The translations under genes and the position numbers were made by a program. Source: Omnitrophica bacterium RIFCSPHIGHO2_02_FULL_51_18 (GTDB lineage: Bacteria; Omnitrophota; Gorgyraeia; 2-02-FULL-51-18). From it: a stretch of 64,000 nt of DNA. The first letter of the stretch is position 1, and every line of letters begins with the position of its first letter. The notes under the pieces were generated by a model, which worked only from the letters and a program-made list of their open reading frames with translations, did not search any database and was not told the DNA's origin. Of this stretch, positions 1,004 to 52,126 are shown piece after piece. The DNA lies in NCBI GenBank assembly GCA_001804125.1, contig MHFI01000036.1, forward strand, positions 23,123 through 87,122, in the 5' to 3' direction.

Positions 1004-1074
1004 GTCATCTCGAGGCCCGAAGGGCCGAGAGATCTCCTACGCGAAGGAGATTTCTCGCTTCGCTCGAAATGACA
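1004..1074. repeat. Copy A of the GTCATYTCGAG...CTCGAAATGAC double-hairpin intergenic repeat family (divergent copy).
   Basis: Sits between cyt b and the C-terminal subunit gene. It is an inverted repeat whose arms each contain a GC-rich hairpin (gcccgaagggc, cgaagcg). Confidence 0.55.
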
Positions 1075-1105
1075 AATAAGAAGGCATAAGCACAACTTTT
1101 TTATA

Positions 1106-1885
1106 TTACAACGGTCCACTAATACCTCCGTCCTTGCGAATTCTCCAGAAGTGCACGGACATCAGCACCACGACTACTGTTGGAATCGCCACGCAATGCA
1201 GGATATAAAACCGTAAAAGCGCGCCCGCTCCCACGAAGCGCCCGCCTAAAAGCGCGAAGCGTACATCGCTTCCGGAATGGATGAGTTGGATATCCCCGAT
1301 GGACAAAAGCGCCGCCCCCGGCCCCTCATGTCCCAGAAACGGAGTTGCACGCGCCATGTTGCTGCCCACCGTGATGGCCCACATAGCCAGCTGATCCCAG
1401 GGAAGCAGGTAGCCGGTGAAACTTAGGAGCATGGTTAATACCAGCAGAATGACGCCGATAACCCAGTTGAATTCACGCGGCGGTTTGTAGGAGCCGGTCA
1501 TGAACACGCGGAACATGTGAAGCCAGACGGTGATGATCATCGCGTGGGCCCCCCAGCGGTGGAGTTCCCGCATGATGCCGAACGGCACGTGCTCGCGAAG
1601 CGCCAGGATGTCGTTGTAAGCATATTCCACGGTTGGGCGGTAATAAAACATGAGAAGTATGCCGCTGACGACGAGCGTGAGAAACACGAAAAACGAAAGC
1701 CCGCCCGCGCACCAGGTGAAACCGAAGCGCGCGCCGGACTTTCTCACCTTGACCGGATGAAGGTGGAAGAAAACGTTGGTCATGACCGAGAGCGCACGGT
1801 CACGGTCCGAGGTCGAGTAACCGTGCCGGAACATGGACTTGTAGATCTGCGAGTCGGTGATGAATTTACTTAGGTTGAATTTCAT
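1106..1885 (-). CDS. Cytochrome b (b6-like N-terminal haem-binding subunit) of the bc/b6f complex.
   Basis: 259 aa, multiple transmembrane helices with conserved His pairs. Sits between the Rieske gene and the subunit IV gene. Confidence 0.85.
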
Positions 1886-1899
1886 TCAGCTCCTTCCTT

Positions 1900-2436
1900 T
1901 CAACATACCAAAAACGACTCGGGGTTATTCCACTCGCCTTTTTCTTGTTGGAACTTTTTACTTTTATCGATCAAGATTTGCCCGTCCTCGGTCAGCCCGA
2001 TGCGGTAGCGTTCCAGCGGCCGGGGGGCTGGGCCCTCAAAATTTATCCCGGTTTTGTAAAAACCGCTGCCGTGGCATGGACATTTAAATTTATTTTCATT
2101 CGTAAGCCAGTTGGGAGTGCAGCCTAAGTGAGTGCAGATCGTCGAAAGCGCATAAATCCCCTCCGCGGTCCGGACCATCCACACGCCGAATTTCTCTTTC
2201 CAACGTTCATCCACCCCTCCGACCTCATAATCATCCGGAAGGCCTGCCTTAAAGGAGGTGGGAGGTTCAAACACGACATTAGGAAAAAGGAAACGTAAGA
2301 CGATGGAAAGCGCGCCGCCGGTGGCCGCTCCGAAACTGACCCAGGCGAGACCAAACCATGAAAGGAATTTCCGGCGGTTCATCGTGGGCCCGCCTGCCGA
2401 CGCCGGTGTTGCGGGTATTTGTGGAATATCAGACAA
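1900..2436 (-). CDS. Rieske 2Fe-2S subunit with a Tat signal peptide.
   Basis: Twin-arginine RRKFL signal and the two Rieske boxes CTHLGC and CPCHGS. Confidence 0.85.
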   Translation of the reverse strand: MSDIPQIPATPASAGGPTMNRRKFLSWFGLAWVSFGAATGGALSIVLRFLFPNVVFEPPTSFKAGLPDDYEVGGVDERWKEKFGVWMVRTAEGIYALSTICTHLGCTPNWLTNENKFKCPCHGSGFYKTGINFEGPAPRPLERYRIGLTEDGQILIDKSKKFQQEKGEWNNPESFLVC

Positions 2437-2503
2437 TTAAGAATCCTTGTTTATGACGTACGAACATTGGAGCATTACATTTTAATGATGTTGTTTCAGA
2501 ATA

Positions 2504-3361
2504 TCAAGCTTGTCGTGCGCTCAAAACATCCAAGGCCGCCTGCCGAACCTTAAGGCTCTTGTCGGTCCTGGAAATTTTTCTCAAAGACTCGAAAGATTGC
2601 GTGTCGCCCACCAGCGCTATTCCTTTAATGGCGTTTATCATGATGTTTTCAACCTCTTCTTCACTCATCGCATGAGCGCTTAAGAGGCTTTGCCGCTCCA
2701 GCATCTGGAGAAGAAGCGGAAGCCCTGAAGGATCTCCCAGCCTTGCGAGTGCCAGCGCCGCGTTCCACCGGACATCGGTGACTTTGTCGTTAAGGAGAGG
2801 TCTTAAATGAGGGAGCGCTTCCCTGCTCCCGATGGCCCCGAGCACGTACGCCGCCGTTTTTTTTAAGCTTTCCTTTTCGTTTTTCAGAAAAGGCATGATG
2901 GCAGGCGCTGAAGAACCGGCTTTCACAGCGCCCAGCGCCCATAACGCATAAAGTTGGACGTCTTCGGAAGGGTCCCCGAGCGCTCGTGTCAGCGCCGCTT
3001 GAGAGACAGCGCTTCCAAAATGACTTAACGCGAGCGCCATGTAACTTCTTGTTTTAGGGTCATAACGGGAGACGTCTTCGAGGATGTGGATCATTTCCTG
3101 GACGAGCCCTTCCGATCGGATATTTTCCTTCCGGTGGTTTAGTTCGTTCGAAAGCTCATAGGCTTTCTGCCAGCGCCTTGAGGGCGAGCCGGTCTTGATG
3201 GCGGTAATCAGTGATTCCGGTGATTCCTGCTCATGCGTGAGAAACACCACCCCGCACAAAAGCACAGCCATGCCGACCGCGATGAGGAGCGGAAATACGA
3301 ACAAACCGAAAAATAGCTTTCTTTGGGTGTTTGGTTTGGAGGCTGTGTCAGAGGCGTTCAT
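2504..3361 (-). CDS. HEAT-repeat (PBS lyase-like) protein with an N-terminal membrane anchor.
   Basis: Repeated ...ALGxIGxxxALPxLxxLLxDxxxxVRxxAAxAL... units. Confidence 0.6.
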   Translation of the reverse strand: MNASDTASKPNTQRKLFFGLFVFPLLIAVGMAVLLCGVVFLTHEQESPESLITAIKTGSPSRRWQKAYELSNELNHRKENIRSEGLVQEMIHILEDVSRYDPKTRSYMALALSHFGSAVSQAALTRALGDPSEDVQLYALWALGAVKAGSSAPAIMPFLKNEKESLKKTAAYVLGAIGSREALPHLRPLLNDKVTDVRWNAALALARLGDPSGLPLLLQMLERQSLLSAHAMSEEEVENIMINAIKGIALVGDTQSFESLRKISRTDKSLKVRQAALDVLSARQA

Positions 3362-3364
3362 TCG

Positions 3365-4573: not shown

Positions 4574-4585
4574 AAACTCCTCCTA

Positions 4586-4715
4586 TGTCATTCCCGCGCA
4601 AGCGGGAATCAGCACGTCATCCTAAGCCGCATAACAAACGTCATTCTGAACGAGCGAAGCGAGTGAAGAATCCCGTTTTTAGATCCTTCGGCGACTGCGT
4701 CGCCTCAGGATGACA
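4586..4715. repeat. Copy B of the GTCATYCTGAG...CTCAGGATGAC double-hairpin repeat family, with an extra 5' hairpin (attcccgcgcaagcgggaat) and a half-copy.
   Basis: Termini gtcattctgaacgagcgaagcg...gaagaatc CCGTTTTTAGA gatccttcggcgactgcgtcgcctcaggatgac. Lies between the helicase 3' end and the MFS start. Confidence 0.6.
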
Positions 4716-4763
4716 TACAGAGGACGGACCCGCCTTTTGTGTGGCGGGCGCGGGGATGACAGT

Positions 4764-6791: not shown

Positions 6792-6816
6792 GGGGGGAGC
6801 GCTGCTTATACGTAAC

Positions 6817-8457: not shown

Positions 8458-8461
8458 CGGT

Positions 8462-9241: not shown

Positions 9242-9308
9242 TAGGATTTAAAATACATGAATTTACCGCAAAGCGCAACCTTAATATGGACTGACCCCGC
9301 CTCCTTTT

Positions 9309-9928: not shown

Positions 9929-9992
9929 GATTATCTCCTGTATTAAATAATAATACATAAAATGACTTATGTCAATAGATGATTTGATCACA

Positions 9993-10027: not shown

Positions 10028-10049
10028 TTTTTGTGACTGTCACTCCCCT

Positions 10050-10088: not shown

Positions 10089-10120
10089 TCGGATAATTTA
10101 TTTTTAAGGTCCACCTTGAG

Positions 10121-10864: not shown

Positions 10865-10911
10865 TAGAAAGTCAGTGGATTCGATGCGAGCGATGTCAAT
10901 ATTTAGGGACT
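10865..10911. repeat. Copy R1 of the 46-bp motif GGATTCGAKGYGAGCGATGTCAATATTYAGGGACTGRCCCCTAACC.
   Basis: 42/46 identical to 13668-13712. Contains TTGACA on the minus strand. Confidence 0.6.
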
Positions 10912-11002
10912 GGCCCCTAACCCACGTTTTTTAAGTTTTTGACAGAACGCCATTCCCCTCTTTCGTAGGAATCGAGCACCTTCGTTTTCTATACCTTCAT
11001 AC

Positions 11003-11589: not shown

Positions 11590-11771
11590 TTTTTAATTCA
11601 GGGGACACTATACATAATTCAGACTCGCACAACCCCCTGCCTTTTCTTCGGTCCCGGCTTTGCCTTCTTCAAAGGCCTCTTTTTTAATTCAGGGGACACT
11701 ATACATAATTCAGACTCGCACAACCCCCTGCCTTTTCTTCGGTCCCGGCTTTGCCTTCTTCAAAGGCCTCT
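11590..11771. repeat. Tandem 91-bp direct duplication (2 units) covering the last 20 codons of the RAYT gene, its stop and the REP-like terminal sequence.
   Basis: Units 11590-11680 and 11681-11771 are identical by eye. Confidence 0.85.
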
Positions 11772-12438
11772 TGATCAGCCTTTCCAGCTTTTCAACGAAG
11801 CTCCCGTCTCCGAGCGGCCTTCCCGTCTTTGCGTACTTGTCCAGCATATCAGATTCTTTATCTATGCCTGATCTTAGAAAATTGTTCCAATCACGAATTT
11901 CAAGATCCAAGAAACACCTCGAGAGTATGGGATCGGAGCTTCCTAAGACATGCGCCGCAGCACTCGACCATTTATAATCGTGTGCGTTTTTAGCTATTCC
12001 TGCCTTCACCGGATTATTCTCTACATAGCGTACGGCGGCATAAAGGTAATTTTCATCCATCGGAAAACTTGAAAATCGTCCTTGAAACAGATACCCTCTC
12101 CACCCTCCTCTAAAATTTATCATCCGCGAGTACAATCGGTGAGTTTCTGCAAAGGCTCTGCAAAAGGTCTCCTTATCCGATGGCACAGCCACAAAATGAA
12201 CATGGGTGTCCATTAGACACCAAGCCCAAATACTGACTTCGTTGATCTTAAGATGTTTTTGTAGGATATTCAGATAGGCAGATTTGTCCTCATCCGAAAA
12301 GAACACAGGCTGATTTCTGTTCCCTCGCTGAATGACATGATGGGGAATGTTTTCTGCGACGACACGCGCTATACGAGCCATACCTTGGGATATTACTCGC
12401 AGGAGGACGATTGGTCAATAATTAAGTATAGTGTCCCC
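11601..12438. mobile_element. RAYT/IS200-like element bounded by 13-bp perfect inverted repeats GGGGACACTATAC.
   Basis: IRs at 11601-11613 (and the duplicate 11692-11704) and at 12426-12438 (reverse complement). Encloses the Y1 transposase gene. Confidence 0.65.
11710..12381 (-). CDS. REP-associated tyrosine transposase / IS200-like Y1 (HuH) transposase.
   Basis: HuH motif HVHFVAV and a downstream catalytic Tyr region (YxxxY). 223 aa. Confidence 0.8.
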   Translation of the reverse strand: MARIARVVAENIPHHVIQRGNRNQPVFFSDEDKSAYLNILQKHLKINEVSIWAWCLMDTHVHFVAVPSDKETFCRAFAETHRLYSRMINFRGGWRGYLFQGRFSSFPMDENYLYAAVRYVENNPVKAGIAKNAHDYKWSSAAAHVLGSSDPILSRCFLDLEIRDWNNFLRSGIDKESDMLDKYAKTGRPLGDGSFVEKLERLIKRPLKKAKPGPKKRQGVVRV

Positions 12439-13667: not shown

Positions 13668-13712
13668 GGATTCGAGGTGAGCGATGTCAATATTCAGGGA
13701 CTGACCCCTAAC
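13668..13712. repeat. Copy R2 of the 46-bp GGATTCGA...GGGACTGACCCCTAACC motif.
   Basis: See R1. Located at the island boundary, just downstream of the SBBP gene stop. Confidence 0.6.
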
Positions 13713-13720
13713 CGTTTTCT

Positions 13721-16030
13721 CTAATTCCCGGCGATATGGAGCGGGTCGGAAATGCTTGCGCCCTCCGATAATTCCACGACAAAGCCTTCGTCGCCGCCGC
13801 TGTAGGTACCTTGGAAGGCAGTGACGGGCGTCTCCCAATCGGTGGTATTCGGAGAATACCCGCCGGCGTATATTTCGCTGCCATCGACAGCCAGAGATCT
13901 GACATAGTCGTTACCCACACCGCCTAACCAGTGGCCCCCGTTAAGAGTAGGAGTAGTGCCGTCAGCGATTTTCACGACGAAGCCTTCAGCACCGCCGCTG
14001 TGGTTACTGCCCGACTGGAAAGGGACACTCTCCCAACTGGTGGTACTGCCAGAATACCCGCCAGCGTATATTTCATCGCCGTTGACAGCCAGATCGTAAA
14101 TTGCATCACCACCTGTGCCGCCCAACCACTGGCGCCAGTTAAGAATGGGGGCAGCGCCGTCAGCGATCTCCACAACAAACCCCTCCCAGCTGCCGCTGAA
14201 ATTACCCTGAGAGGGGTTAACAGGTGTCTCCCAACCAGCGGAATTGTCAGAATATCCGCCGGCGTATATTTCATCGCCGTTAACAGCCAGGGCTCGAACT
14301 GAATCACTGCCTGTGCCACCTAACCACTGGCGCCAGTTAAGAACGGGCCAGGGACTGCCCTCAACAATCTCCGCGACAAAACCTTCGCGGCCGCCGCTGT
14401 AGTCACCCCCGTAGCTTGTGAAATTATCCCAATTAGTGGATTGGGAAGAATACCCACCGGCGTATATTTCATCACCGTTAACAGCCAGTGCATCAATAGA
14501 ATCATCACCACCTGAGCCGCCCAACCATTGGGCCCATGCAATAGCGGGTGTAGCGCCGTCAGCGATTTCCACGACAAAGCCTTCCATTCCTCCGGAACCC
14601 CCGTAGTCGCCTCGGAAGTAGGTTTCACCCCCCCACGTGTCGCTACCTTCAGAATCCCCGCCGGCGTATATTTCATCGCCGTTAACAGCCAGGGCTTGAA
14701 CTGAATCTTGACCTGCGCCGCCTAACCACAGGCCCCAGCCAATGGTGGGGACAGCGCCGTCAGCGATTTCCACGACAAAGCCTTCGTTGATACCGTTGAA
14801 TGGCTCTTGGAAGGCGGGACCATCCCAACTGTTGTCACTGGTCGAAGACCCGCCGGCATAAATTTCATCGCCGTTGACGGCCAGGGCGTAAACTCCATCA
14901 TTACCCGATCCACCCAACCACTGACCCCAGTTAATTGTGGGGGTAGCGCCGTCTGCGATCTCCACGACAAAGCCTTCGGTGCCGCTGCTGTGGGTGCCCT
15001 TAAAGGAGGCGAGACTATCCCAATTGGAAGCGTTACCGGACCACCCGCCGGCATAAATTTCATCGCCGTTGACGGCCAGGGCGTAAACTCCATCATTACC
15101 CGATCCACCCAACCACTGACCCCACTGCAAGGTCGGGTCAATGAGGAGTGGGTAGGCGGACAAAGGCTCGTGGATGGAAAGAAGGAGTGTTCGTTCATCC
15201 AGAAGGACGGGGTCTACTTTTTTCTGCGCGCCGTCCGCCGTCCAGTAGAGAAAGGGTTTGATGCGGGCCACAAGCTCATCTTTTTCAATAGCGACCCCTT
15301 TGGGGAGCGCTTTCCGCACTGTGTCGATGAGTTCCCGCCTTTTTTTGGTGTCTCTCGGGTCAATGCCCTGGATATTGACGATCGCCTTTTGGTAGATGCC
15401 CACAGAGCCGTCTTCGTCTTTTTTGAATTTGAATATCTTGGGATAAGAAGCTCTCCCGGCCGAAAGAGACCAGACATACTGAGTCACGTCATTGTGGTTC
15501 GGCCTTTTGGCGTAGAGCCATTCATTAAGAACTACTTCCCCTTCCCCTGTCCTGCCCTGGGCGTAGGCAATGGCGTCCGTGGGGCGCTCGTAAACCAGCC
15601 AGTCGCGGTTAGGGGCGCTAAAAACTCTTTGAGTGAATGGCTGGCCGGTATTCTTGAGGGTAAGGTCAAAAGAGACTGTTTCCATGCCAAGTTCAAGCAG
15701 GGTGCGTTGTTTCACGGTGGTGGAGAGAGTGTCGAATAAGGTGCGGATTTTAACGAAAACATTTTTTTGTCCGGGCGCTCTCCTAATGGCGAGCTCGCTC
15801 GTAAAGCCCGTGCCGCTGGGACCCTGCTCTATTCTTTCCGCGGAGACGATACGGCCATTCATTAGGCTTTGTTTTTCGTCCATGAGGCGTAGGGCGGATA
15901 CGAGTTCCTGTGAGAGCCCCGGCAGTGACAAAGGCAGGAGCGCCTCAGGCCCCGCCGCGACAAGATTTGCCTTGACGATGAGTAGCGAACCGAGCGCCAC
16001 TAGCCACAAGACAGCTTTTCTTTTATGCAT
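13721..16030 (-). CDS. Secreted SBBP beta-propeller repeat protein (8 repeats), a candidate pilus-associated adhesin.
   Basis: Signal peptide. Repeated WGQWLGGSGNDGVYALAVNGDEIYAGG units. Lies at the distal end of the T4P gene cluster. Confidence 0.7.
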   Translation of the reverse strand: MHKRKAVLWLVALGSLLIVKANLVAAGPEALLPLSLPGLSQELVSALRLMDEKQSLMNGRIVSAERIEQGPSGTGFTSELAIRRAPGQKNVFVKIRTLFDTLSTTVKQRTLLELGMETVSFDLTLKNTGQPFTQRVFSAPNRDWLVYERPTDAIAYAQGRTGEGEVVLNEWLYAKRPNHNDVTQYVWSLSAGRASYPKIFKFKKDEDGSVGIYQKAIVNIQGIDPRDTKKRRELIDTVRKALPKGVAIEKDELVARIKPFLYWTADGAQKKVDPVLLDERTLLLSIHEPLSAYPLLIDPTLQWGQWLGGSGNDGVYALAVNGDEIYAGGWSGNASNWDSLASFKGTHSSGTEGFVVEIADGATPTINWGQWLGGSGNDGVYALAVNGDEIYAGGSSTSDNSWDGPAFQEPFNGINEGFVVEIADGAVPTIGWGLWLGGAGQDSVQALAVNGDEIYAGGDSEGSDTWGGETYFRGDYGGSGGMEGFVVEIADGATPAIAWAQWLGGSGGDDSIDALAVNGDEIYAGGYSSQSTNWDNFTSYGGDYSGGREGFVAEIVEGSPWPVLNWRQWLGGTGSDSVRALAVNGDEIYAGGYSDNSAGWETPVNPSQGNFSGSWEGFVVEIADGAAPILNWRQWLGGTGGDAIYDLAVNGDEIYAGGYSGSTTSWESVPFQSGSNHSGGAEGFVVKIADGTTPTLNGGHWLGGVGNDYVRSLAVDGSEIYAGGYSPNTTDWETPVTAFQGTYSGGDEGFVVELSEGASISDPLHIAGN

Positions 16031-16893: not shown

Positions 16894-17316
16894 TTAAAGG
16901 CCGATAGACCGGCATACCACTGTTCTCAGGTCCGTTGTTGCGTCTACCTTGCTTATGGTGATAAAAACATCATCCGCCGCTGTTTGTGCCGCATCCGCCG
17001 TATCCGTGTCAAGATCGATGTAGTAAACCACCGGACTCGGCGGCCAATCCGGGTCCGTAAAATCCCCCCCTGATGACCCGGGGGGCACCTGGTTTCTCCT
17101 TATTCGCTCGAAGGCGTCCACCATCCCCGACTGCGCGCGGTAGTAATTCCTTACACGTGCTCCGACGACCGATTCGGTCACTTTTCTCTGCTGAAAACCG
17201 GTGTCGACGGCGAATAGGGCGCTGAGGGTGAAGAGAAACAGCATCATTATCGCGAAGATCATCGCGACGCCTCGTTGGCTGCGTATCTTAGCTTGCTGAC
17301 GCATGTGCGGTGACAT
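16894..17316 (-). CDS. PilX-like minor pilin / pilus assembly protein.
   Basis: N-terminal hydrophobic helix GVAMIFAIMMLFLFTLSALFAV. Position in the pilin gene string. Confidence 0.5.
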   Translation of the reverse strand: MSPHMRQQAKIRSQRGVAMIFAIMMLFLFTLSALFAVDTGFQQRKVTESVVGARVRNYYRAQSGMVDAFERIRRNQVPPGSSGGDFTDPDWPPSPVVYYIDLDTDTADAAQTAADDVFITISKVDATTDLRTVVCRSIGL

Positions 17317-17902
17317 TCCTTTTAAGGATAACGGTCCTGGTCGGGGACCCTGCCTTTGCGGCCAATTGTATCCTGATCGTGTTACTGTTCACCTGAGTGA
17401 AAGAAGTCTGCGCGGGGTCAAGCCTTAGAGTGGGTCCGACCTCATCATCCGCCGCGCCCGCTGAATTACCACTCTCTCCACCGGGCCCGGCGGCGCCTTT
17501 AGTCCAATAAAGCCTGCGTTCACCGCTGCCGTCAATGAATATGTATTTCACCCAAGTATCGTCCCCGGTATCCATAGTTCCGATAGGCTGTCCACCTGCT
17601 GTCGTATTGGGGGTCCCGTCTAATTTATAATCCCAGCGAAGCTTAAGCTGGGCGCTCACGGTGTCGTTTGCCTGGGGGCCCCCATCCCCCACCTCCACCA
17701 AGTTGGCGTTAGCCACCTTCCTTGCGATATGGTCCAGCGCGGTATAAGATTCGACAAGCCCTATGTTGGCTTGACCGCTGACTAGATTGCGCGCGCCCGA
17801 AATATAAACGGTGCTGGCCCCCAAAGCGACTACGGACAAGAGCCCAATCGAAATCAGGAGCTCCGCCAAAGTCAATCCCGCTTCACTTGTCGATCTTACC
17901 AC
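17288..17902 (-). CDS. Minor (pseudo)pilin with a prepilin N-terminal methylation motif.
   Basis: GLTLAELLISIGLL (G/xTLxE). Confidence 0.6.
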   Translation of the reverse strand: MVRSTSEAGLTLAELLISIGLLSVVALGASTVYISGARNLVSGQANIGLVESYTALDHIARKVANANLVEVGDGGPQANDTVSAQLKLRWDYKLDGTPNTTAGGQPIGTMDTGDDTWVKYIFIDGSGERRLYWTKGAAGPGGESGNSAGAADDEVGPTLRLDPAQTSFTQVNSNTIRIQLAAKAGSPTRTVILKRNVTAHASAS

Positions 17903-18240
17903 GAGGTGGTTGCCTCCACCTTCTTATAATCCTTCCCGCCCACCGGAAATGTTTGGAAGCGGTTGGTATAAGTCGTCAGGCCAATGGTCGAGTCGTTGTC
18001 CGCCACAGTATCGTTCCAGGTGTCTTCCCCCCAGGTTTGATAGACCGTGTCTAGTTTTGTTTGGGCGCTTTGGTAGGAGACCGCGCTTTCAGGCTTTGTA
18101 TAGCGGCCGGCGTTAACAAATGCCGCGTAAAGACCCGCGCCCGCAATAGACAGGATAGTCCCGGCGACGAGGATCTCGAGCAGAGAGAAGCCCTTTTGAT
18201 GACGGCGGCGGTTGAAGATTTTTTTGGCGTTCTTTGTCAT
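17896..18240 (-). CDS. Minor pilin (PilV-like).
   Basis: KGFSLLEILVAGTIL prepilin motif. Confidence 0.65.
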   Translation of the reverse strand: MTKNAKKIFNRRRHQKGFSLLEILVAGTILSIAGAGLYAAFVNAGRYTKPESAVSYQSAQTKLDTVYQTWGEDTWNDTVADNDSTIGLTTYTNRFQTFPVGGKDYKKVEATTSW

Positions 18241-18608
18241 GTTTGCGTTATCTGTCCGGTTGCGTAGGTCATGGTAAACGTTGTGGTTGTGCTTCCTACC
18301 GTGCGCGACATCTCGGAGATGGCCGTACCGACGGATGTGATCGTGTAATAAACGGGACTTGCCAAGTCCGTGTTGAGATTAGTGTTTATGGTAGCTACGG
18401 GAGGATTTGAACCGCCGTCCCAGAAAGCGCCTCCGTTGTTGAGGGCATAGATCTTTTGGGCCGTGTATAGGATGTTGAGGTAGGTGTACGGCTCATTTTG
18501 GTAGGAGCGCTCGATCTGCCCGGTGTAAATCGGCACCGCAGCCCCAGCCATGACCGCCAAAATAGCCAGAACGACCAACACCTCAACAAGCGTAAATCCT
18601 TTTAGTTT
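18237..18608 (-). CDS. Type IV pilin (second pilin; start taken at MKLKGFTLVEV).
   Basis: GFTLVEVLVVLAILAV class III signal. Confidence 0.7.
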   Translation of the reverse strand, partial: KLKGFTLVEVLVVLAILAVMAGAAVPIYTGQIERSYQNEPYTYLNILYTAQKIYALNNGGAFWDGGSNPPVATINTNLNTDLASPVYYTITSVGTAISEMSRTVGSTTTTFTMTYATGQITQT

Positions 18609-18722
18609 CATCGGATACATCCACCTAATCAAGAGTATACAGCGAGAAAATGTATAATTCAACGAGCAACACTAATAAATATTATGTGAAAATTATCAAC
18701 GGCACACACAACGCCAGTCAAA

Positions 18723-18764
18723 CAAACAGGACGTAACACCTCAAAAGGTATCACGTCCTGTTTG
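18723..18764 (-). terminator. Rho-independent terminator downstream of pilA.
   Basis: Minus strand: CAAACAGGACGT-loop-ACGTCCTGTTTG followed by TTTGACTGG. Confidence 0.55.
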
Positions 18765-18790
18765 TGGCAAAAAACTCGGTAATGAATTCT

Positions 18791-19237
18791 CTATACCAAC
18801 TTGCCTGCCCCTACCAATGTGTATCCTGTGGCCGTACAGCTGAGAGTCACCGTGTCACCCGCCACTAGCGGTGCAACTGCGCCAGCGGCTACGCAATTCC
18901 AAGTAGTTGCGGAGGTAGCGTCTAGTGTGTAGGTGAAGTTAGGTACTTGACCCGCCGCCGCGGTATTGGGATTATAATCTATTAAAGTAAACGTCGCGCC
19001 CGTATAAGAGTTAGGGTTTGTCGTATTTGTTTGATAGTAAACCCCCATAGCGGCCTTAACCACGTCCAGGTGATCGATAGCTTCCTTTTTGTAACCTTTC
19101 ATTTTTTGATTGGCTAGAATAGGAACAACCGCCGCGGCGATTACACCCAGCACCACTAACACTATTAAGATTTCGACGATGGTGAAGCCTTTTATCCCCA
19201 GTTTCCTTTTTTTACCAAGGATTTTTGATATTGACAT
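18791..19237 (-). CDS. pilA: Major type IV pilin PilA.
   Basis: Leader MSISKILGKKRKLGIKG then FTIVEILIVLVVLGVIAA. Has its own promoter and terminator. Confidence 0.8.
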   Translation of the reverse strand: MSISKILGKKRKLGIKGFTIVEILIVLVVLGVIAAAVVPILANQKMKGYKKEAIDHLDVVKAAMGVYYQTNTTNPNSYTGATFTLIDYNPNTAAAGQVPNFTYTLDATSATTWNCVAAGAVAPLVAGDTVTLSCTATGYTLVGAGKLV

Positions 19238-19280
19238 ACACCCCCCTTTTTAAGAGTAAAACATGCTTATTTCTACTTAG

Positions 19281-19309
19281 AATATATCATTAAAGATAAT
19301 TAAAGTCAA
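19281..19309 (-). promoter_or_regulatory. Sigma70-like promoter for pilA (TTGACT-17-TATATT).
   Basis: Read on the minus strand. Strong GGGGGG ribosome-binding site 7 nt before the ATG. Confidence 0.45.
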
Positions 19310-19317
19310 GAAATACT

Positions 19318-20532
19318 TTAATGAATCGCCTCACTTAGAGAAAACATGGGGACAAAAAGAGCATAGGCAATGATACCTACAAAAGCGCCAACAATGATCA
19401 GGACCAACGGCTCGACTAAAATGCCGATGCGCGTGCTTAACGTGTCGACTCTTTCTGCATAAAATTCAGAGGCCTTGGAGATCATAGCGGGCAGACTGCC
19501 GCTCTCTTCCCCTATCGTGACAAGCTGGATAAACATGGGTGAGAAGATGGGATCCGTTTGAAGACTGGCCGAAAGCGTCTGCCCCCGCTGGATCCCTTTT
19601 GTTGCGGCAAGGAACGCGTTCTCAAAAACAGAATTGCCGGCGGCGCGTGATGCGATCTCAAGGCTTTGAATCAAATTCACGCCGCTTTTTATCAAGGTCG
19701 ACAAGATGATGCAGATCCTTGCGTGAATAAAATCATTCAGGCCTTCTCCCAGCACCGGGACGAGCAATAGAAGCCGATCCAACTGCCGGCGGCCCACGGA
19801 AGTCGAAATGTATTTCTTCGATAAGAAAAAAAGGCCGATGGCCATAAACGCGATGAAAAAAATATAATGCTGGATTACGGTGCTAATGTTGATGATCGCC
19901 ATCGTAAGCGGCGGAAGCTTAGCGTTAAATTGTGAGAATATTTTCTGGAATATCGGTATGATCCGTAACATGAAAAGGAGCAAAACACCCACAGAGCAAA
20001 TCACGAGAATGCAGGGGTAAATCAACGCCGATATTATCTTTTTCATCAGAAGATGATTGGACTTGACATTCTTGGCCAGCTCTTTTAAGACCATGGGCAC
20101 GGAACCGCTCGTCTCCCCCGCCTCTACAAGGAATAACCAAAGTTTCGGAAAATGTTTTGGATGCCTGGCCATGCTGTCCTTAAGGGTCGAGCCCGCCCTT
20201 ATGTTCGAGATGATCGCGCCGATCACTTCGTTCATCCTTTGACTTTCCGTTAAAAGAGCGATAATTTCGAGTGACCTTACGAGCGGAATCCCCGCTTCTA
20301 GAAGCATGGCAAGCTGGTCCAAAAAGAACAAAGTATCCTCGGACCTTATCCTGCGACGGCGCAGTTTCCGCCGGCGGGAAGGGTCCGAAGCGCTCCCCAG
20401 CGAAGCCAGCTTTATGACAAGAAGTCCGCGGTTTTGAAGAGCTGTTACGGCTAGACGTTCACTCTCTGCCTCTTGGATCCCTTGAACCATTTCGCCCGAT
20501 GAGGCGCGGGCGTTGTAATTATAGACGGGCAT
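19318..20532 (-). CDS. pilC: Type IV pilus platform protein PilC (GspF family).
   Basis: 404 aa, two T2SSF domains, three transmembrane helices. Confidence 0.85.
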   Translation of the reverse strand: MPVYNYNARASSGEMVQGIQEAESERLAVTALQNRGLLVIKLASLGSASDPSRRRKLRRRRIRSEDTLFFLDQLAMLLEAGIPLVRSLEIIALLTESQRMNEVIGAIISNIRAGSTLKDSMARHPKHFPKLWLFLVEAGETSGSVPMVLKELAKNVKSNHLLMKKIISALIYPCILVICSVGVLLLFMLRIIPIFQKIFSQFNAKLPPLTMAIINISTVIQHYIFFIAFMAIGLFFLSKKYISTSVGRRQLDRLLLLVPVLGEGLNDFIHARICIILSTLIKSGVNLIQSLEIASRAAGNSVFENAFLAATKGIQRGQTLSASLQTDPIFSPMFIQLVTIGEESGSLPAMISKASEFYAERVDTLSTRIGILVEPLVLIIVGAFVGIIAYALFVPMFSLSEAIH

Positions 20533-20552
20533 GGGGCAGCCTTTTTGATTGC

Positions 20553-22277
20553 TTAAGCGGTTTCATAGCCGCCTGAAAGCGTGACACGGAATATCTCTTC
20601 CAAAGATGTCTCACCCTCGATAACTTTTTGATAGCCGCTCTCTTCGAGTGTCTTCATGCCCGCCTTACGCGCCTCGGCCCGGATGTGGACCAAAGAGGCC
20701 CTCTGTGTAACGAGTTCCTGAATGCGCTCGTTGATGACCATGATCTCATAGATCGCGGTCCGTCCGCGGTACCCTGTGTGGGAGCAGTGATCGCAACCCT
20801 TCGTTTTATAAAGCGTCTTTTTTTCGACTTGCAGTAATTTTGGCAATTGCGATGCGGAAGGCTCATAAGACTGTTTGCATTTTTGACAGAGACGGCGTAC
20901 AAGCCTTTGTGCCACTATCATGAGAAGTGAGTTCGAGACAAAAAAGGGCTCAATGCCGATATCGATCAGGCGGTTCAGCGTGGAGCAGGCATCATTGGTG
21001 TGCAGTGTGCTGAACACGAGATGCCCCGTCATCGCCGCGCGGATGCAGACTTGCGCTGTTTCGGCGTCCCGGATTTCGCCCACTAAAATTATGTCGGGGT
21101 CCTGCCGCAGGAACGCCCGAAGGCCTGAGGCGAATGTGAGACCGATCTGGGGTTTTACCTGAACCTGATTCACGCCTTCCAATTGGTATTCGACGGGGTC
21201 TTCAACGGTCAGGATATTTTGGCCGGAAGATTTGATGTCGTTTAATGCCGCGTAAAGCGTGGTGGTCTTACCGCTTCCGGTGGGTCCGGTGATGAGGATG
21301 AGGCCGTAGGGTTTTCGAATAACGCCGCGAAACTGTTTCAACTCGTGAGCCTCGAAACCCAGCGTGCCCAGGTTAAGCGAGACAGCCTCGCGGTCTAGGA
21401 TGCGCAGAACCATTTTTTCTCCGTGCACCGTCGGGATGGTCGATACGCGGAAATCCACAGTCCGGTTCTCGATCGTGGCCCGGAAGCTGGCATCCTGAGG
21501 GAGCCTTTTCTCGGCGATGTCCATGCGGGACAGGATCTTAAGGCGTGAAATCAAGGGCAATTGCATGGATTTGTCGGGCGCGGGCACTTCATGCAATACC
21601 CCGTCAATGCGGAAACGCAGGTTCAATCGGCCCGGAAAAGGCTCGATGTGGATATCGCTTGCGCGTTCCTTGATGGCCTGGCGTATCAGAAGGTCTGTCA
21701 GTTTGATCACCGGCGTCTTGCCGGCGCTGGCCACCAGGCTGTCCAGCGAAAGCGGCTCATCGGCGCCTTCTTCCACAACTGCGACCGGAGCGTCATAAGA
21801 GGCTTCGACGGCTGATTGCAGCATCCCCCCTTCCCCGTAAAATCCGTCGATTCCCGTTTGTATGTCGGAAGGAGTGGCAATGATGCGAGTGATATGACAG
21901 CCCGTGATTTTTCTTAAATTATCCAAAACCACGATGTCCGTGGGGTCCGCGATCGCGACCGTGAGAGAATTTTCGTGGCGGTATAAGGGCAGTACCCTGT
22001 GTTTTCGGGCGGTTTCCTCCGGAAGCAATTTATTTAAGTTTTGCTCGGCCGCGGGTTTTAAAAGCCCGCTTTCAAGAGACGCGTAAGGGATGTTCATTTG
22101 CTGGCCGAGCGTGGCGGCCACGTCTTTTTCCGTGATGGCGCCAAGCTCCATCAGGATTTGTCCGATCAGCTGGCCGGGGCTTTCTTTTTGAGCTTCCAGC
22201 GCTTTTTCTATTTGTGACGGCGTGACAACCCCGTTTTTTAATAAGATCTCGCCGAACCTAAGGTACTCTCTGCGCAT
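20553..22277 (-). CDS. pilB: Type IV pilus assembly ATPase PilB (GspE family).
   Basis: N-terminal T2SE_N domain, Walker A GPTGSGKTTT, tetra-Cys zinc motif CQKC...CDHC. Confidence 0.9.
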   Translation of the reverse strand: MRREYLRFGEILLKNGVVTPSQIEKALEAQKESPGQLIGQILMELGAITEKDVAATLGQQMNIPYASLESGLLKPAAEQNLNKLLPEETARKHRVLPLYRHENSLTVAIADPTDIVVLDNLRKITGCHITRIIATPSDIQTGIDGFYGEGGMLQSAVEASYDAPVAVVEEGADEPLSLDSLVASAGKTPVIKLTDLLIRQAIKERASDIHIEPFPGRLNLRFRIDGVLHEVPAPDKSMQLPLISRLKILSRMDIAEKRLPQDASFRATIENRTVDFRVSTIPTVHGEKMVLRILDREAVSLNLGTLGFEAHELKQFRGVIRKPYGLILITGPTGSGKTTTLYAALNDIKSSGQNILTVEDPVEYQLEGVNQVQVKPQIGLTFASGLRAFLRQDPDIILVGEIRDAETAQVCIRAAMTGHLVFSTLHTNDACSTLNRLIDIGIEPFFVSNSLLMIVAQRLVRRLCQKCKQSYEPSASQLPKLLQVEKKTLYKTKGCDHCSHTGYRGRTAIYEIMVINERIQELVTQRASLVHIRAEARKAGMKTLEESGYQKVIEGETSLEEIFRVTLSGGYETA

Positions 22278-22286
22278 CGGGCCCTT

Positions 22287-31531: not shown

Positions 31532-32569
31532 TTACGCCTGGATTATAGTCTTATTCGAATTCAGTGTCAACAGATTCAGCCTTCTGTGGGCGACAAGGGA
31601 GTTTGGGAGGTGAATTTGAAGCGTTTTTTTGGTTTCAGAATGAAGGATATCGAGAATCGCTGAAATATGAGAAAGCTCGATGCGTTTTAGATGGCCTTGG
31701 ATTTTTTGAATCGCCTGCACAATCACTTCACGCTGAAGGGCCAAGGGATATTTTTTAAGCTTTTCCACGCGAAGCGTGACACCCCCCTGTTTTTTGACTC
31801 CGCGGCACCGCTTAAAAACCTTAAGCGCTGTTTTTTCCAAAAATTCTTGAATGTCGCGGCTGATGATCTGCAGATTCGCCAGGGACTTTTTGATGCCGGG
31901 GTTGTAGTCGCGCGCGAGGATTTTTAATAAATCGTGCCTTACCCGGTTTCTGGCAAACATTCGATCCGTATTGGTCTTGTCCGTACAGAAATAAACCCCG
32001 TTCCTTTTTAAAAATAATTTTAAATCCCGCTTTTCCACATCCAGTAATGGCCGGATGAGCTTAAACCGGCCTTGATTTCTCTTGGCGGGAATGCCGCACA
32101 AACCCTTGACCCCCGATCCGCGCAGGATACGAAGCAGCACGGTCTCGGCCTGGTCATCCAGCGTGTGAGCGGTGACGATGCAACGGCTTTTGGTTTTGAA
32201 GGCCACTTTTTCTAAAAATTCATAGCGCTTGATGCGGCCTGTTTCCTCAAGGGATCGTTTCAGGCGCTTGGCTTCTCTTTTTAGATTGATTTTTACGGAA
32301 TAAAAAGGAAGCGAAAGTTCCCGGCAGAGCTGCTTGACCCTGGTCTCGTGTTCCCCGGATGCTTTTGGGACAAAGCCGTGATTCACGTGCGCCACCGTGA
32401 GCTTAAGAGAATATTTTCGTCTCAACAGAACGAAAAGTTCCATGAGGGCGACGGAGTCCGGGCCGCCTGAGACGGCCAGGACCAGGGAATCATTTTTCTT
32501 GAATAAACCATGCCGCTGGTTGCAGATCTCGAGGGATTGGATCAGATTCTTGGCGGATTTCATGTTCAC
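31532..32569 (-). CDS. tilS: tRNA(Ile)-lysidine synthetase TilS.
   Basis: PP-loop SGGPDS. 345 aa. Confidence 0.85.
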   Translation of the reverse strand: MNMKSAKNLIQSLEICNQRHGLFKKNDSLVLAVSGGPDSVALMELFVLLRRKYSLKLTVAHVNHGFVPKASGEHETRVKQLCRELSLPFYSVKINLKREAKRLKRSLEETGRIKRYEFLEKVAFKTKSRCIVTAHTLDDQAETVLLRILRGSGVKGLCGIPAKRNQGRFKLIRPLLDVEKRDLKLFLKRNGVYFCTDKTNTDRMFARNRVRHDLLKILARDYNPGIKKSLANLQIISRDIQEFLEKTALKVFKRCRGVKKQGGVTLRVEKLKKYPLALQREVIVQAIQKIQGHLKRIELSHISAILDILHSETKKTLQIHLPNSLVAHRRLNLLTLNSNKTIIQA

Positions 32570-32652
32570 GTCATCCTGAGCGCCGGAGGCGCGAAGGATC
32601 CCGTTTTTGAGATTCTTCGTCCGCCAAAGAACATGGCGGACTCAGAATGACA
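32570..32652. repeat. Copy C of the GTCATCCTGAG...CTCAGAATGAC double-hairpin repeat.
   Basis: gtcatcctgag[cgccggaggcg]cgaaggatc CCGTTTTTGA gattcttcg[tccgcc...ggcgga]ctcagaatgac. Abuts the tilS start. Confidence 0.7.
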
Positions 32653-37475: not shown

Positions 37476-37598
37476 GCCCTTTTCCTAAAGTGAGATTTAA
37501 CTCAATCCTACACAGGGAGTCTACATTACTAAGTAATAATAATCAAGTTTAAGTTATTTTAAGTGATTATCACGCCTCTCTGAGAAGCGCACCACACT

Positions 37599-37690
37599 GT
37601 CATTCTGAGGTCGCCGCAGCGACCGAAGAATCTCGTTTTTAAGATTGAGATCCTTCGTCGGTCGCCTGCGGCGACCTCCTCAGGATGACA
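37599..37690. repeat. Copy D of the GTCATTCTGAG...CCTCAGGATGAC double-hairpin repeat.
   Basis: gtcattctgag[gtcgccgcagcgac]cgaagaatc TCGTTTTTAAGATTGA gatccttcg[tcggtcgcctgcggcgacc]tcctcaggatgac. Lies between the tRNA and the regulator gene. Confidence 0.7.
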
Positions 37691-46904: not shown

Positions 46905-46906
46905 GC

Positions 46907-48555: not shown

Positions 48556-48564
48556 CTGGTGGGG

Positions 48565-49443: not shown

Positions 49444-50278
49444 TCATGGACTCTCTGATTTTCTGGAGCGTTATCAGGTTTTTAATCAGCATCACGTTGG
49501 TAACGGGTCCGACGCCGCCGGGAACCGGGCTTAAGTACGAGGCCCGCGCCCTGGCCGGCTCAAATTCAATATCGCCGACGAGCTTTCCGGCCACCCTATT
49601 TTCCCCGACATCAATGACCATCGCGCCTTTTTTGATCCATTTCCCCTTGATGATATTGGGTTTGCCGACGACGGCCACGACAATATCCGCCTGGGAGATA
49701 TGGGATTCTATATTTTTTGTCCGGGCATGGCAAACCGTTACGGTGGCCAATCGATCCATGAGCAAAATGGCGGTTGGTTTTCCCACCAGGTCACCGTGGC
49801 CGACGACGACGGCCTTTTTGCCTGCGAGGTTCGGCATTTTGGACTCAATCAGCGCGAGCACCGCATTGGCCGTAGGAGAAAAAACCCCAAAGTGACTTTT
49901 TAAAAACGTGCGCCCTTCCACGTCTTTTAAGATATGAATGTTGCTCAGAACGTTGGTCGGACTGAGGCGCCCGGGCAAGGGGGAAAACACCAGGATGCCG
50001 GTGATCCGGGGACTATCGTTGAGCTTCCTGATTTTTTCGATCACCGCGCTTTCGGACTCATTTTCCGGAAATAGATTGGGCGCCCATCGGATACCCATTT
50101 TTTTCAAGGTCCGGCCCAGATAACTGGAATACAAAACGGTGTCTTTAGCCCGTCCCACCTGAATCGTTGCCAGCGCAAGCTCCCCATGTTCGGCTTTTAT
50201 CTGCCTGATTTGACGTGCCGCCGAGTCTAGGTAGTTTTCGGCGATCGCCTGTCCCTTAAGAAGCTGCGCGCCTGCCAT
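49430..50278 (-). CDS. folD: Bifunctional methylene-THF dehydrogenase/cyclohydrolase.
   Basis: 282 aa FolD pattern. Confidence 0.85.
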   Translation of the reverse strand: MAGAQLLKGQAIAENYLDSAARQIRQIKAEHGELALATIQVGRAKDTVLYSSYLGRTLKKMGIRWAPNLFPENESESAVIEKIRKLNDSPRITGILVFSPLPGRLSPTNVLSNIHILKDVEGRTFLKSHFGVFSPTANAVLALIESKMPNLAGKKAVVVGHGDLVGKPTAILLMDRLATVTVCHARTKNIESHISQADIVVAVVGKPNIIKGKWIKKGAMVIDVGENRVAGKLVGDIEFEPARARASYLSPVPGGVGPVTNVMLIKNLITLQKIRESMNGIC

Positions 50279-50861
50279 ATCCCAAGTCCTTTATAATTTT
50301 ATTTTTGGTGCGAGAACAATCCTTCTCAAGTTTGGCAAGGCAGGCCTCCCCTTTTTCGGCGCAGCGGCGGTCTTGAATGCTTTTCAAGTTTATTTCCGCA
50401 TTCCACCGGCCCGCTCGAAACGCGGCTTCCAGCAAGATGGCCGCTTCGGCCAAATCACTCGCAAGCCAGCGGCCCGTGCGGGGAATCTCACGTTGGGCGG
50501 CGCGAAGCGCTTCGCAGGAAAGCGCGCAGATTTTGAGCGGCACCCGCGCACTTTTTTTTAAAGCATTTTGATAGACCCGGCTCTTTTTGTCTTTTTTCCT
50601 GACTTTTAAAAAATTTAAAAACGCTTTGGCATCTTCGGCGGCAAGCGTTAACAACTCAAGTCGTATTTTTTTTATTTTTTTTAAATGACGCGCAAACTGC
50701 CTATTAAACGCCTTTTTCTGATTGATTCCGGCCGTCATCTCAAGAAGCGCCGTGCCTAGGGCGGCTGTGATTGCCGCCGCGCTCCCCCCTCCGGGAGTCA
50801 TTGAGGATGAGGCGAGGCGGTTTAGGAAACTTTCCAGCGTGTGCTTCGAAAAAGATCTCAA
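50256..50861 (-). CDS. Cyclodeaminase/cyclohydrolase (FTCD C-terminal domain, FchA-like).
   Basis: MTPGGGSAAAITAALGTALLEM. Confidence 0.65.
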   Translation of the reverse strand: MRSFSKHTLESFLNRLASSSMTPGGGSAAAITAALGTALLEMTAGINQKKAFNRQFARHLKKIKKIRLELLTLAAEDAKAFLNFLKVRKKDKKSRVYQNALKKSARVPLKICALSCEALRAAQREIPRTGRWLASDLAEAAILLEAAFRAGRWNAEINLKSIQDRRCAEKGEACLAKLEKDCSRTKNKIIKDLGYGRRAAS

Positions 50862-50863
50862 AC

Positions 50864-52024
50864 CTATTTACCCATTCCGACCCGTTGTGTCTGCTGGAAC
50901 ACTTTTCCTTCGGTACGGATGGAAGGCGCGATAATGAGCTCGGTGAGCTGTAATTCCCTGATACTTTGTGCGCCGACATTGCCCATGCAGGTTTGCAGCG
51001 CACCCATCAGGTTTTGAGTACCGTCGTCCAACCGGGCAGGCCCAAAAAGGATCTCTTCAAGCGTGCCCGTCGTTCCCACGTGGATGCGCGTTCCCCTTGG
51101 AAGATTGGCGTGGGGCGTGGCCATGCCCCAGTGAGTGCCGCCGCCCGGTGCCTCCTTGGCCCGGGCGAACGCCGAACCTACCATCACCGCATCGGAGCCG
51201 CAGGCGAACGCCTTGCAAATATCGCCGCCGGTGCTCATTCCGCCGTCCGCGATGATCGGCACGTATTTTCCGTTTTTTTTGTAGTAGAAATCACGCGCGG
51301 CGGCCGCATCGCAAATCGCGGTGACCTGAGGCACGCCCAACCCCAAAACGCCCCGTGTCGTGCAGGCGGCGCCGGGCCCGATACCGATGAGCAGAGCGGC
51401 CGCGCCGGTGTCCATGAGTTCAAGCGTCGTTTGGTAAGTCACGCAGTTTCCGATGATAACGGGAATTTTCACCCTTTTGCAGAATTTATAGAAATCCAGT
51501 GTCTTGTATTCCGTCGAGAGGTGGCGCACGGTGGTCACGGTGGACTGCACGATAAAAACGTCGCAACCGGCGTCCTGCGCGATTGTTCCGAAGATTTGAG
51601 CGCGCTGCGGGATGCTCGAAACACAGACCACGCCCCCTTTCTTTTTAATCTCCTTGATCCGTCTTGTGACCAGTTTTTCTTGAATGGGCTGCTTGTAAAG
51701 GGCCTGGAGCAGGCGCGTGGATTCCTCAAAGCTGGCGTTGGCTATTTTCTTGAGGACTTCGGAAGGATTTTCATAGCGTGTTTGCACGCCCTCGAGATTT
51801 AAACACGCGATGCCTCCCATTTTGGACATCCGGACGGCAAAATTTACATCGACGACCCCGTCCATCGCGGAGGCGATGATCGGCACGCGGAATTTTTTCT
51901 TCCCCACCTGCCAGGAGGTGTCCACTTCATTCGGGTTGATTGTCACCAAACCAGGCACCAGCGCTATTTCATCAAACCCGTAGCAACGCCGCGCTTTCCT
52001 TCCCCGCCCTAGCCACATTCCCAT
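50864..52024 (-). CDS. IMP dehydrogenase / GMP reductase family protein lacking the CBS pair.
   Basis: IMPDH TIM barrel, catalytic Cys loop, ADGGMSTGGDICKA. Confidence 0.7.
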   Translation of the reverse strand: MGMWLGRGRKARRCYGFDEIALVPGLVTINPNEVDTSWQVGKKKFRVPIIASAMDGVVDVNFAVRMSKMGGIACLNLEGVQTRYENPSEVLKKIANASFEESTRLLQALYKQPIQEKLVTRRIKEIKKKGGVVCVSSIPQRAQIFGTIAQDAGCDVFIVQSTVTTVRHLSTEYKTLDFYKFCKRVKIPVIIGNCVTYQTTLELMDTGAAALLIGIGPGAACTTRGVLGLGVPQVTAICDAAAARDFYYKKNGKYVPIIADGGMSTGGDICKAFACGSDAVMVGSAFARAKEAPGGGTHWGMATPHANLPRGTRIHVGTTGTLEEILFGPARLDDGTQNLMGALQTCMGNVGAQSIRELQLTELIIAPSIRTEGKVFQQTQRVGMGK

Positions 52025-52039
52025 AGATAATCTCTCTCT

Positions 52040-52126
52040 AATGAGATCCTTCGTCGACGCTTGGGCGTCTCCTCAGGATAAATTCGCGCGGGCGACTTGA
52101 CGTCGCTTCGCTCCGTAAGTCGCGCG
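52040..52126. repeat. Copy E: half-copy (GATCCTTCG...CCTCAGGAT) of the double-hairpin repeat plus an adjacent GC hairpin.
   Basis: gatccttcg[tcgacgcttgggcgtc]tcctcaggat, then gcgcgggcgactt...aagtcgcgcgc. Confidence 0.55.

Follow-up and report, generated by a model that had tools for sequence, protein, structure and literature searches.

The 64,000-nucleotide stretch of the Omnitrophota contig MHFI01000036.1 analyzed here (hereafter, the window) carries a dispersed hairpin repeat at five intergenic sites, which we designate A to E. A preliminary description, made from the sequence alone, had presented these sites as five copies of a double hairpin joined in one long inverted repeat, and the presence of its motifs at all five sites was confirmed. 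The motif GTCATYCTGAG, with at most one mismatch, occurred nine times in the window against 1.66 expected, a number reached by 0 of 100 shuffles, and CGAAGRATC occurred seven times against 1.83 expected, so that the repeat is far above chance. The arrangement of the motifs was found to differ from that first proposed. The basic unit is a single hairpin, which reads (T/C)GTC, AT-NNN, GA, then a GC-rich hairpin of variable sequence at the apex, GA, N'N'N'-AT and C; each hairpin is independent, with its own 5' GTC tag and 3' C, and the supposed outer termini do not pair across two arms, as ATYCT (outer) pairs instead with AGRAT (inner) inside one arm. The window contains nine complete and two degenerate units, and four of the five sites hold inverted pairs, all in the HH orientation (tags outside). 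The dispersed repeats are an instance of the already described CGTC/TGTC-tagged repetitive extragenic palindromes (REPs; NTS/SRM), and the element type itself is not new.

At site A, a plus-strand left unit (1003–1034; T-GTC-ATCTC-GA-[GGCCCGAAGGGCC]-GA-GAGAT-C), with the stem-triplet variant CTC/GAG, is followed by a spacer with self-complementary ends (TCCTACGCGAAGGA, 1035–1048) and by a minus-strand right unit with a minimal GCGAAGC apex (1049–1074; T-GTC-ATTTC-GA-[GCGAAGC]-GA-GAAAT-C), with which it forms an HH pair; the site is a stem variant (ATCTC/GAGAT and ATTTC/GAAAT). Site B contains four units: a perfect hairpin of the dRS3/NTS-like kind, a degenerate half-unit and two units that form a pair. 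The first of these, B1 (TGTCATTCCCGCGCAAGCGGGAATC, 4586–4610, plus strand), has a perfect 8-bp stem and a 4-nt loop and, together with 3 nt of its 3' flank, agrees with the Neisseria NTS consensus (dRS3/CGTC-1 type) at 25 of 28 positions. The second (4615–4639, plus strand) retains a degenerate 5' half (CGTCATCCTAAG...) and has no 3' half, while the third (4639–4672, plus strand; C-GTC-ATTCT-GA-[ACGAGCGAAGCGAGT]-GA-AGAAT-C) and the fourth (4682–4715, minus strand; T-GTC-ATCCT-GA-[GGCGACGCAGTCGCC]-GA-AGGAT-C) form an HH pair around the spacer CCGTTTTTA (4673–4681). Site C is a heterodimer of a plus-strand unit (32569–32600; C-GTC-ATCCT-GA-[GCGCCGGAGGCGC]-GA-AGGAT-C) and a minus-strand unit (32611–32652; T-GTC-ATTCT-GA-[GTCCGCCATGTTCTTTGGCGGAC]-GA-AGAAT-C), separated by CCGTTTTTGA, and its folding with DNA parameters gave two separate hairpins. 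The units of site D, on the plus strand at 37598–37632 (T-GTC-ATTCT-GA-[GGTCGCCGCAGCGACC]-GA-AGAAT-C) and on the minus strand at 37649–37690 (T-GTC-ATCCT-GA-[GGAGGTCGCCGCAGGCGACCGAC]-GA-AGGAT-C), have near-identical apices, and this pair can also form one long hairpin (−35 kcal/mol, z = −8.9). The right unit of site D is identical in sequence in a second assembly, and identical assemblies of the same organism showed no variation at sites D and E.

The interval 52040–52126 (site E) had been counted as a full copy; it does hold one minus-strand unit at 52045–52079 (ATCCT-GA-[GGAGACGCCCAAGCGTCGAC]-GA-AGGAT-C), with ATTT in place of the 5' tag (T/C)GTC, and the remainder of the interval is a different palindrome. 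This unit is probably a decayed copy that has lost its GTC tag. Beside it, at 52080–52130, lies a separate GC-rich palindrome, GCGCGGGCGACTT ... AAGTCGCGCGC, with the center GCGAAGCG. The central CGTTTTT, which had been regarded as conserved, was present at three sites and missing from the other two.

The tag of the nine complete units was TGTC in six and CGTC in three. The stem opened with A-T and then T-A in 9/9, and a C stood directly after the stem in all of them, followed by T or C and then by a variable base. A tandem G.A step was observed in eight of the nine units. Within each arm, a C at Y was matched by a G at R and a T by an A, and the arms of a given site were often unlike each other. 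A stem of 8–9 bp with a loop of 4–5 nt described only B1 and the right unit of site A (eight positions, counting the two G.A, and a 5-nt loop); in the remaining seven units, 11–23 nt between the two G.A steps form a second stem. No target-site duplication was seen by eye at the pair boundaries of sites A to D. A reading of CUGA...GA as a hammerhead ribozyme or a kink-turn was dropped on inspection, as core positions were missing.

CGTC REPs have been described as palindromes with an unpaired CGTC tag (variants TGTC and CCTC) at one end, a stem of 8–9 bp whose first pairs are A-T and T-A, a loop of 4–5 nt, and a short unpaired 3' tail with the consensus CCA (Di Nocera et al. 2013, BMC Genomics, PMC3733652). 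Their families, CGTC-1 to CGTC-4, include Neisseria dRS3 and Rickettsia RPE-4 and RPE-6 and were reported in five phyla, mostly in alpha-proteobacteria; their dimers are mostly HH, with heterodimers common, they lie in intergenic regions between co-directional genes, and in no species do they flank a tyrosine transposase gene (PMC3733652). The window units share with them the tag, the A-T/T-A stem start, the HH pairs, the heterodimers, the intergenic position and the lack of a flanking transposase, and differ from them in the extended apical hairpins of most units; a short 3' tail is present, but it reads C(T/C)N instead of CCA. The earlier proposal of a dispersed REP- or MITE-like (miniature inverted-repeat transposable element) family was right in outline. 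When the repeat sequence was used as the query, a literature search yielded nothing but primers and bla-TEM.

We also used a structure detector that demands GTC, an exact 5-bp stem with two additional pairs (of the Watson-Crick, G-U or G.A type) and a 3' C. The nine complete units were recovered together with one probable false match at 58515, while shuffled windows gave about 0.6 matches. A scan blind to the tag recovered the same eight GA-type units, all of which (8/8) carried [TC]GTC, and also the site E unit with its ATTT. Folding with DNA parameters gave the predicted hairpin for every arm, in which a 2x2 GA/GA internal loop separates the 5-bp stem from the apical one (z between −2.0 and −4.5), and whole-site folds gave z from −3.3 to −8.9. 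Both the folds and the site sequences bear out the earlier statement that self-complementarity is kept in apical palindromes whose sequence changes from copy to copy.

A single motif scan of 185,579 species genomes with GTCATYCTGAG-N(5-35)-CGAAGRATC returned at least 120 stretches, with 185 units among the matches listed, to which the following counts refer. The variable Y and R positions were C/G in 96 units, T/A in 85 and mismatched in only 4, across many phyla. The family is under structural constraint, and the compensatory change claimed for it is real. The base preceding GTC was T in 142 units and C in 31, the base following ATC was T in 143, and the commonest apex was CGNAG (65/185), which corresponds to a GC-GNA-GC mini-hairpin and fits the dimensions of 8–9 bp and 4–5 nt. 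The GCGNAGC apex is an exceptionally stable DNA mini-hairpin. Pairs in other genomes were tags-outside in 27 cases versus tags-inside in 6, with variable spacers. The hosts were Nitrospirota, Chloroflexota, Acidobacteriota, Bacteroidota, Patescibacteria/CPR (candidate phyla radiation), Bacillota, Desulfobacterota, "delta-proteobacteria", Omnitrophota, Melainabacteria, Rickettsiales, Coxiellaceae and others, and units were also present in at least 120 stretches of IMG/VR viral contigs.

We then examined which genes accompany the units. This gene-link test was made independently of the report of Chenal et al. (2025). Clustering of the open reading frames (ORFs) within 1.5 kb of units at 120 listed loci revealed no recurrent neighbor except three GIY-YIG genes, and all three had units on both flanks. 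In the reverse direction, loci were selected by protein only: an alignment of the three GIY-YIG proteins retrieved 590 metagenome relatives, and the best 80 of the 590 were used. Units lay at most 250 nt from the GIY-YIG gene at 65 of these 80 loci (upstream at 53 and downstream at 60), and the unit density was 5.7 per kb near the gene versus 0.25 per kb in the remaining flanks, a 23-fold difference. At 24 of the 48 loci with units on both sides, the gene took the place of the spacer in an HH pair (a plus-strand unit, the gene and a minus-strand unit), and this was the commonest layout. The exact subtype of the window accounted for 177 of the 217 units near GIY-YIG genes and was found at 59 of the 80 loci, and the tandem GA/GA was present in 214 of the 217. 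When units were defined only by GTCAT-NNN-GA ... GA-NNN-ATC, the triplets were exact complements in 139 of 161 distinct units and fell into six triplet types. The proteins matched Pfam PF01541 (E = 5e-17 and 3e-16), and searches of NCBIfam and of PDB sequences with the GIY-YIG protein gave no informative match. At one locus on a Cyclobacteriaceae chromosome (L030, 3300–3800, minus strand), a GIY-YIG gene, bounded at either end by [− unit][+ unit], is broken into two reading frames, which reflects either a pseudogene or a sequencing error.

The preliminary description had held that a mobilizing activity was not evident. An enzyme that recognizes hairpins of this family is known from the literature, and the link to its gene was re-derived here. 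The 28-nt NTS (CGTCATTCCCGCGMAVGCGGGAATCYRG), which contains dRS3, and its relatives, the Ssn-related motifs (SRM), flank a small GIY-YIG gene, ssnA (Chenal et al. 2025, Nat Commun, PMC11893778). SsnA binds the hairpin solely as single-stranded DNA (ssDNA), on one strand only, and cleaves upstream; cleavage depends on the three bases that precede the palindrome and binding on the C that follows it, the loop may be deleted, swapped or lengthened into a longer stem, and no activity was found on double-stranded DNA or RNA (PMC11893778). In N. meningitidis, transformation by NTS-flanked DNA is lowered by the SsnA system (PMC11893778). Published SRMs are 20–50 nt long, and the paper stresses Pseudomonadati (PMC11893778). 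The window units resemble NTS/SRM in being oriented, in the unpaired GTC upstream, the C after the palindrome, the length of 20–50 nt and the dispersed intergenic position; moreover, small GIY-YIG genes of a single domain have units of the subtype on either side, the apex is variable, and B1 shares 25 of 28 positions with NTS. The variable apex, as opposed to the invariant GTC, G.A steps and 3' C, means that natural variation independently agrees with the mutational map of SsnA. Unlike NTS/SRM, eight of the nine window units have the tandem G.A and long apices (11–23 nt between the two G.A steps), and the window holds no ssn gene; the host is an uncultured bacterium known from metagenomes, and the subtype of the window occurs in Chloroflexota, Patescibacteria/CPR, Acidobacteriota, Nitrospirota, Bacillota and others.

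Nearly all long ORFs of the window, and all genes that flank the five sites, are on the minus strand, so that each site lies between co-directional genes, as had been stated. Site A lies between the stop codon of cytochrome b (1106) and the ATG (about 996) of a Cytochrom_B_C/subunit IV-like gene, and site B between genes for an MFS transporter and a UvrD-like helicase. Site C separates tilS (PP-loop family) from a small secreted protein gene and is 6 nt from the likely tilS ATG, site D separates a response-regulator GGDEF-EAL gene from tRNA-Met and is 62 nt from the latter, and site E lies between an IMPDH-family gene and a CusF-like gene. The placements at cytochrome b/subunit IV, tilS and the tRNA thus agree with those first given.

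The comparison of orthologous spacers, which had also been proposed, was informative at site A. The spacer between cytochrome b and subunit IV is 111 nt long in the window, including the 72-nt pair, whereas in three close relatives, with cytochrome b 92, 90 and 89% identical, the same spacer measures 21, −4 and 2 nt, respectively, and has no unit. The gene order HEAT, Rieske, cytochrome b, subunit IV and multihaem is common to the window and these three relatives. This is one insertion presence/absence polymorphism, and the absence of the pair from the operon spacer of three close relatives indicates that the pair does not belong to the conserved regulatory parts of the operon. A further relative, at 80% cytochrome b identity (L218), has a 67-nt spacer with unrelated hairpins. 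Two perfect hairpins, ACCGCCACTG...CAGTGGCGGT and TCCCGGC...GCCGGGA, occupy this spacer (3286–3354); as they differ from those of the window, the same spacer has been colonized by different palindromes in different lineages. Among named genomes, the nearest cytochrome b relatives were metagenome-assembled genomes of Planctomycetota and Acidobacteriota (about 75% identity), a result that is not decisive for affiliation. Searches for exact copies of the cytochrome b and TilS sequences gave no match, probably owing to different calls of the start codons.

Given the anatomy of the units, their covariation, the link between the subtype and GIY-YIG genes and the one insertion polymorphism observed here, we consider it probable, at roughly 0.82, that the window units are CGTC/TGTC-tagged REP (NTS/SRM) hairpins that a GIY-YIG nuclease of the Ssn type recognizes as ssDNA. 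Ssn binding and cleavage, carried over to the window units from the literature on homologues, most likely apply to them; we infer, further, that an Ssn is encoded in the source genome and is what spreads the units. In ssDNA, each unit would fold alone into a 5-bp stem (A-T and T-A first), a tandem G.A/A.G step and a free apical stem-loop, with the (T/C)GTC 5' of the stem and the C 3' of it predicted to be unpaired. By analogy with Ssn homologues, a single-domain GIY-YIG nuclease of about 90 amino acids would bind this hairpin in ssDNA only and on the tagged strand only. The nick would fall a few nucleotides upstream of the tag, with GTC expected to govern cleavage, the 3' C to govern binding and the apex to be dispensable; an Ssn homologue of the subfamily would accordingly be predicted to bind or cut ssDNA carrying TGTCATYCTGAG...CGAAGRATC. 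The gene-less pairs of the window may be non-autonomous relatives of a unit-ssn-unit cassette and would have entered the spaces between genes in this lineage. At present they would most likely serve to mark ssDNA, during replication, repair or DNA uptake, for cleavage by Ssn, with only secondary effects, if any, on the transcripts in which they lie. A type IV pilus/type II secretion-like cluster, with prepilin-like small proteins recognized by eye from their N-termini, is located at 16894–23954 (minus strand) and includes genes for T2SSF (19318–20532), a T2SSE ATPase with an MshEN domain (20553–22277) and a secretin (22287–23954); such a cluster would matter here if incoming DNA is a target of Ssn-type systems.

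Several observations weigh against this interpretation. The published SRM pattern, HGTCWYN(0-2)YYVSBRHN(0-5)WNVSBRGN(0-2)RNCYNB (PMC11893778), matched 0 of the 9 units, its sole match in the window being a spurious one within a gene at 36170. B1 fails the pattern only at its tail, while the tandem G.A step and the long apices lie outside it, so that the subtype is not formally covered. Strand-specific binding and cleavage of ssDNA have been published for four Ssn homologues only (PMC11893778), all of them outside the tandem-G.A subtype. The GIY-YIG proteins, classed by PF01541, are putative Ssn homologues, and 15 of the 80 GIY-YIG loci had no unit by the structure detector. No ssn/GIY-YIG gene was found by tblastn in the 64-kb window, and an Ssn-like gene was absent from the vicinity of the units at 117 of the 120 listed genome loci and at all 120 listed viral loci. 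A missing neighbor is expected at most loci if the copies are dispersed and non-autonomous, yet it provides no positive evidence. Finally, to our knowledge, no GIY-YIG nuclease has ever been demonstrated to carry out transposition, and the fold is not known to drive transposition of DNA in prokaryotes.

Other explanations were weighed against recognition by an Ssn-type nuclease. The hairpins might be selected mainly as RNA, acting as attenuators or terminators, as 3'-end or mRNA-stability elements or as precursors of small RNAs (sRNAs), roles some of which the preliminary description had suggested. The position of all five sites between co-directional genes, where they would be co-transcribed, and the stability of the hairpins speak for this; many REPs are transcribed, as argued by Di Nocera et al. 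(PMC3733652), and effects in 3' untranslated regions are documented for REPs of E. coli. The Rfam sRNA models FtrB (Francisella) and SpF44 (Streptococcus) contain similar hairpins and align to the units with sub-threshold scores (window positions 4590–4609 and 4625–4716), and these families may themselves contain SRM/CGTC-type repeats. At the gathering threshold, though, Rfam matched only the tRNA in the window, and permissive thresholds gave chance-level matches. No site received a terminator-like call on either strand, the T5 tract being on the plus (non-transcribed) strand, and, as sites B and E show, the units are not oriented in a fixed way with respect to transcription. Mismatched Y/R positions showed no G-U bias (3 C/A versus 1 T/G among the matches listed), the commonest apex is the very stable DNA mini-hairpin GCGNAGC, and three close relatives lack the element in the corresponding operon spacer. 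The unpaired GTC and the 3' C are kept across phyla, and it is on these that an enzyme which binds DNA and has no activity on RNA depends. We therefore see no specific support for the proposed RNA roles and regard selection at the RNA level as unlikely; any mRNA that contains a hairpin will still form it, and its decay or translation may be affected locally, but such effects would not explain an unpaired tag that is kept across phyla.

Mobilization of a classical REP/REPIN by a Y1 (HUH) transposase of the RAYT type appears considerably more improbable. The window does encode a RAYT-like Y1_Tnp protein (ORF 11710–12381, minus strand; PF01797, E = 1.6e-8; NF047646, 49.4 bits, under the cut-off of 80), the doublets resemble REPINs, and Y1 transposases recognize ssDNA hairpins with a 5' tetranucleotide. 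This gene is instead flanked by GGGGACACTATAC inverted repeats, at 11601–11613 and 11692–11704 (plus strand) and at 12426–12438 (minus strand), and RAYT-like genes with GGGGWSAS inverted repeats are known as "TIRYT" (PMC3733652). The GGGGACACTATAC ends fit this type and are unlike the units, so that the Y1 system and the hairpin repeats are unrelated, as the preliminary description had correctly seen from the termini. The tag is (T/C)GTC rather than GTAG, the window Y1 protein had no tblastn match at the 120 listed repeat loci, and the lack of flanking tyrosine transposase genes reported for CGTC units points the same way. To the same low degree of likelihood belongs the view that the units are inert relics of a past invasion, with no partner enzyme in the genome and no present activity. 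The window without an ssn gene, the lost tag at site E and the half-unit at site B would suit such relics, as would the presence of Ssn in only 81% of SRM-rich genomes (PMC11893778) and the proposal that extinction of the CGTC families is possibly under way (PMC3733652). Against it, all eight GA-type units are intact in the tag, both G.A steps, the complementary 5-bp stem and the 3' C, which would be unexpected after a long neutral period; the apices vary between copies yet remain self-complementary, and the insertion at site A is recent enough to be missing in relatives at 89–92% cytochrome b identity.

The units share features with two further systems. Like GTAG REPs/REPINs and their RAYTs, they are hairpins with a 5' unpaired tetranucleotide, probably recognized as ssDNA, form inverted doublets and are dispersed between genes, far from a usually single-copy enzyme gene that is flanked by repeats; they differ in the tag (YGTC versus GTAG) and in the probable enzyme (a GIY-YIG nuclease versus an HUH tyrosine transposase), and the ends of the window Y1 gene, GGGGACAC, are unrelated to them. 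Like the subterminal hairpins of IS200/IS605 insertion sequences (ISs), they combine an imperfect hairpin with an adjacent short guide or cleavage sequence and would be processed on one strand of ssDNA; unlike these, they have no associated Y1 TnpA or TnpB, come nowhere near the length of an IS and mostly carry no gene. The layout with the gene as spacer and the insertion polymorphism are consistent with mobility driven by the GIY-YIG nuclease, as support and not as proof. It is a tentative suggestion, and one we hold to be rather doubtful, that a hairpin-ssn-hairpin cassette moved on ssDNA by the nuclease may have given rise to the tags-outside pairs as its miniature derivatives without a gene; the subtype appears to have reached most bacterial phyla, among them the CPR, as well as viral contigs.

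A tandem duplication of about 91 bp comprises the 3' end of the Y1 transposase gene and a GGGGACACTATAC repeat (11595–11681 and 11686–11772), and the same locus is single-copy in three other assemblies (L001, L003 and L004). Direct copies of about 37 nt, GCGATGTCAATATT[T/C]AGGGACTG[G/A]CCCCTAAC, at 10888–10925 and 13678–13714 bracket 2.8 kb with the Y1 transposase, a RelE/HTH pair and ParE-like genes, adjoining two PIN/antitoxin pairs, and may be the boundaries of an inserted island. At 13721–16030 (minus strand), the encoded 769-aa protein contains some seven internal repeats (WLGG.G.D...ALAVNGDEIYAGG), which share about 70% identity with one another at the DNA level.

With the assignment to CGTC/TGTC-tagged REPs, a repeat that had been unexplained becomes annotatable as recognition sites of a known type of ssDNA nuclease, even within a respiratory operon. 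The published SRM pattern misses the tandem-G.A, long-apex subtype wholly, and surveys that use it probably undercount both the family and its taxonomic range. If the tentative reading of the pairs as mobile derivatives were true, a class of bacterial transposons would be built on the GIY-YIG nuclease fold, and the family would be much larger than reported.

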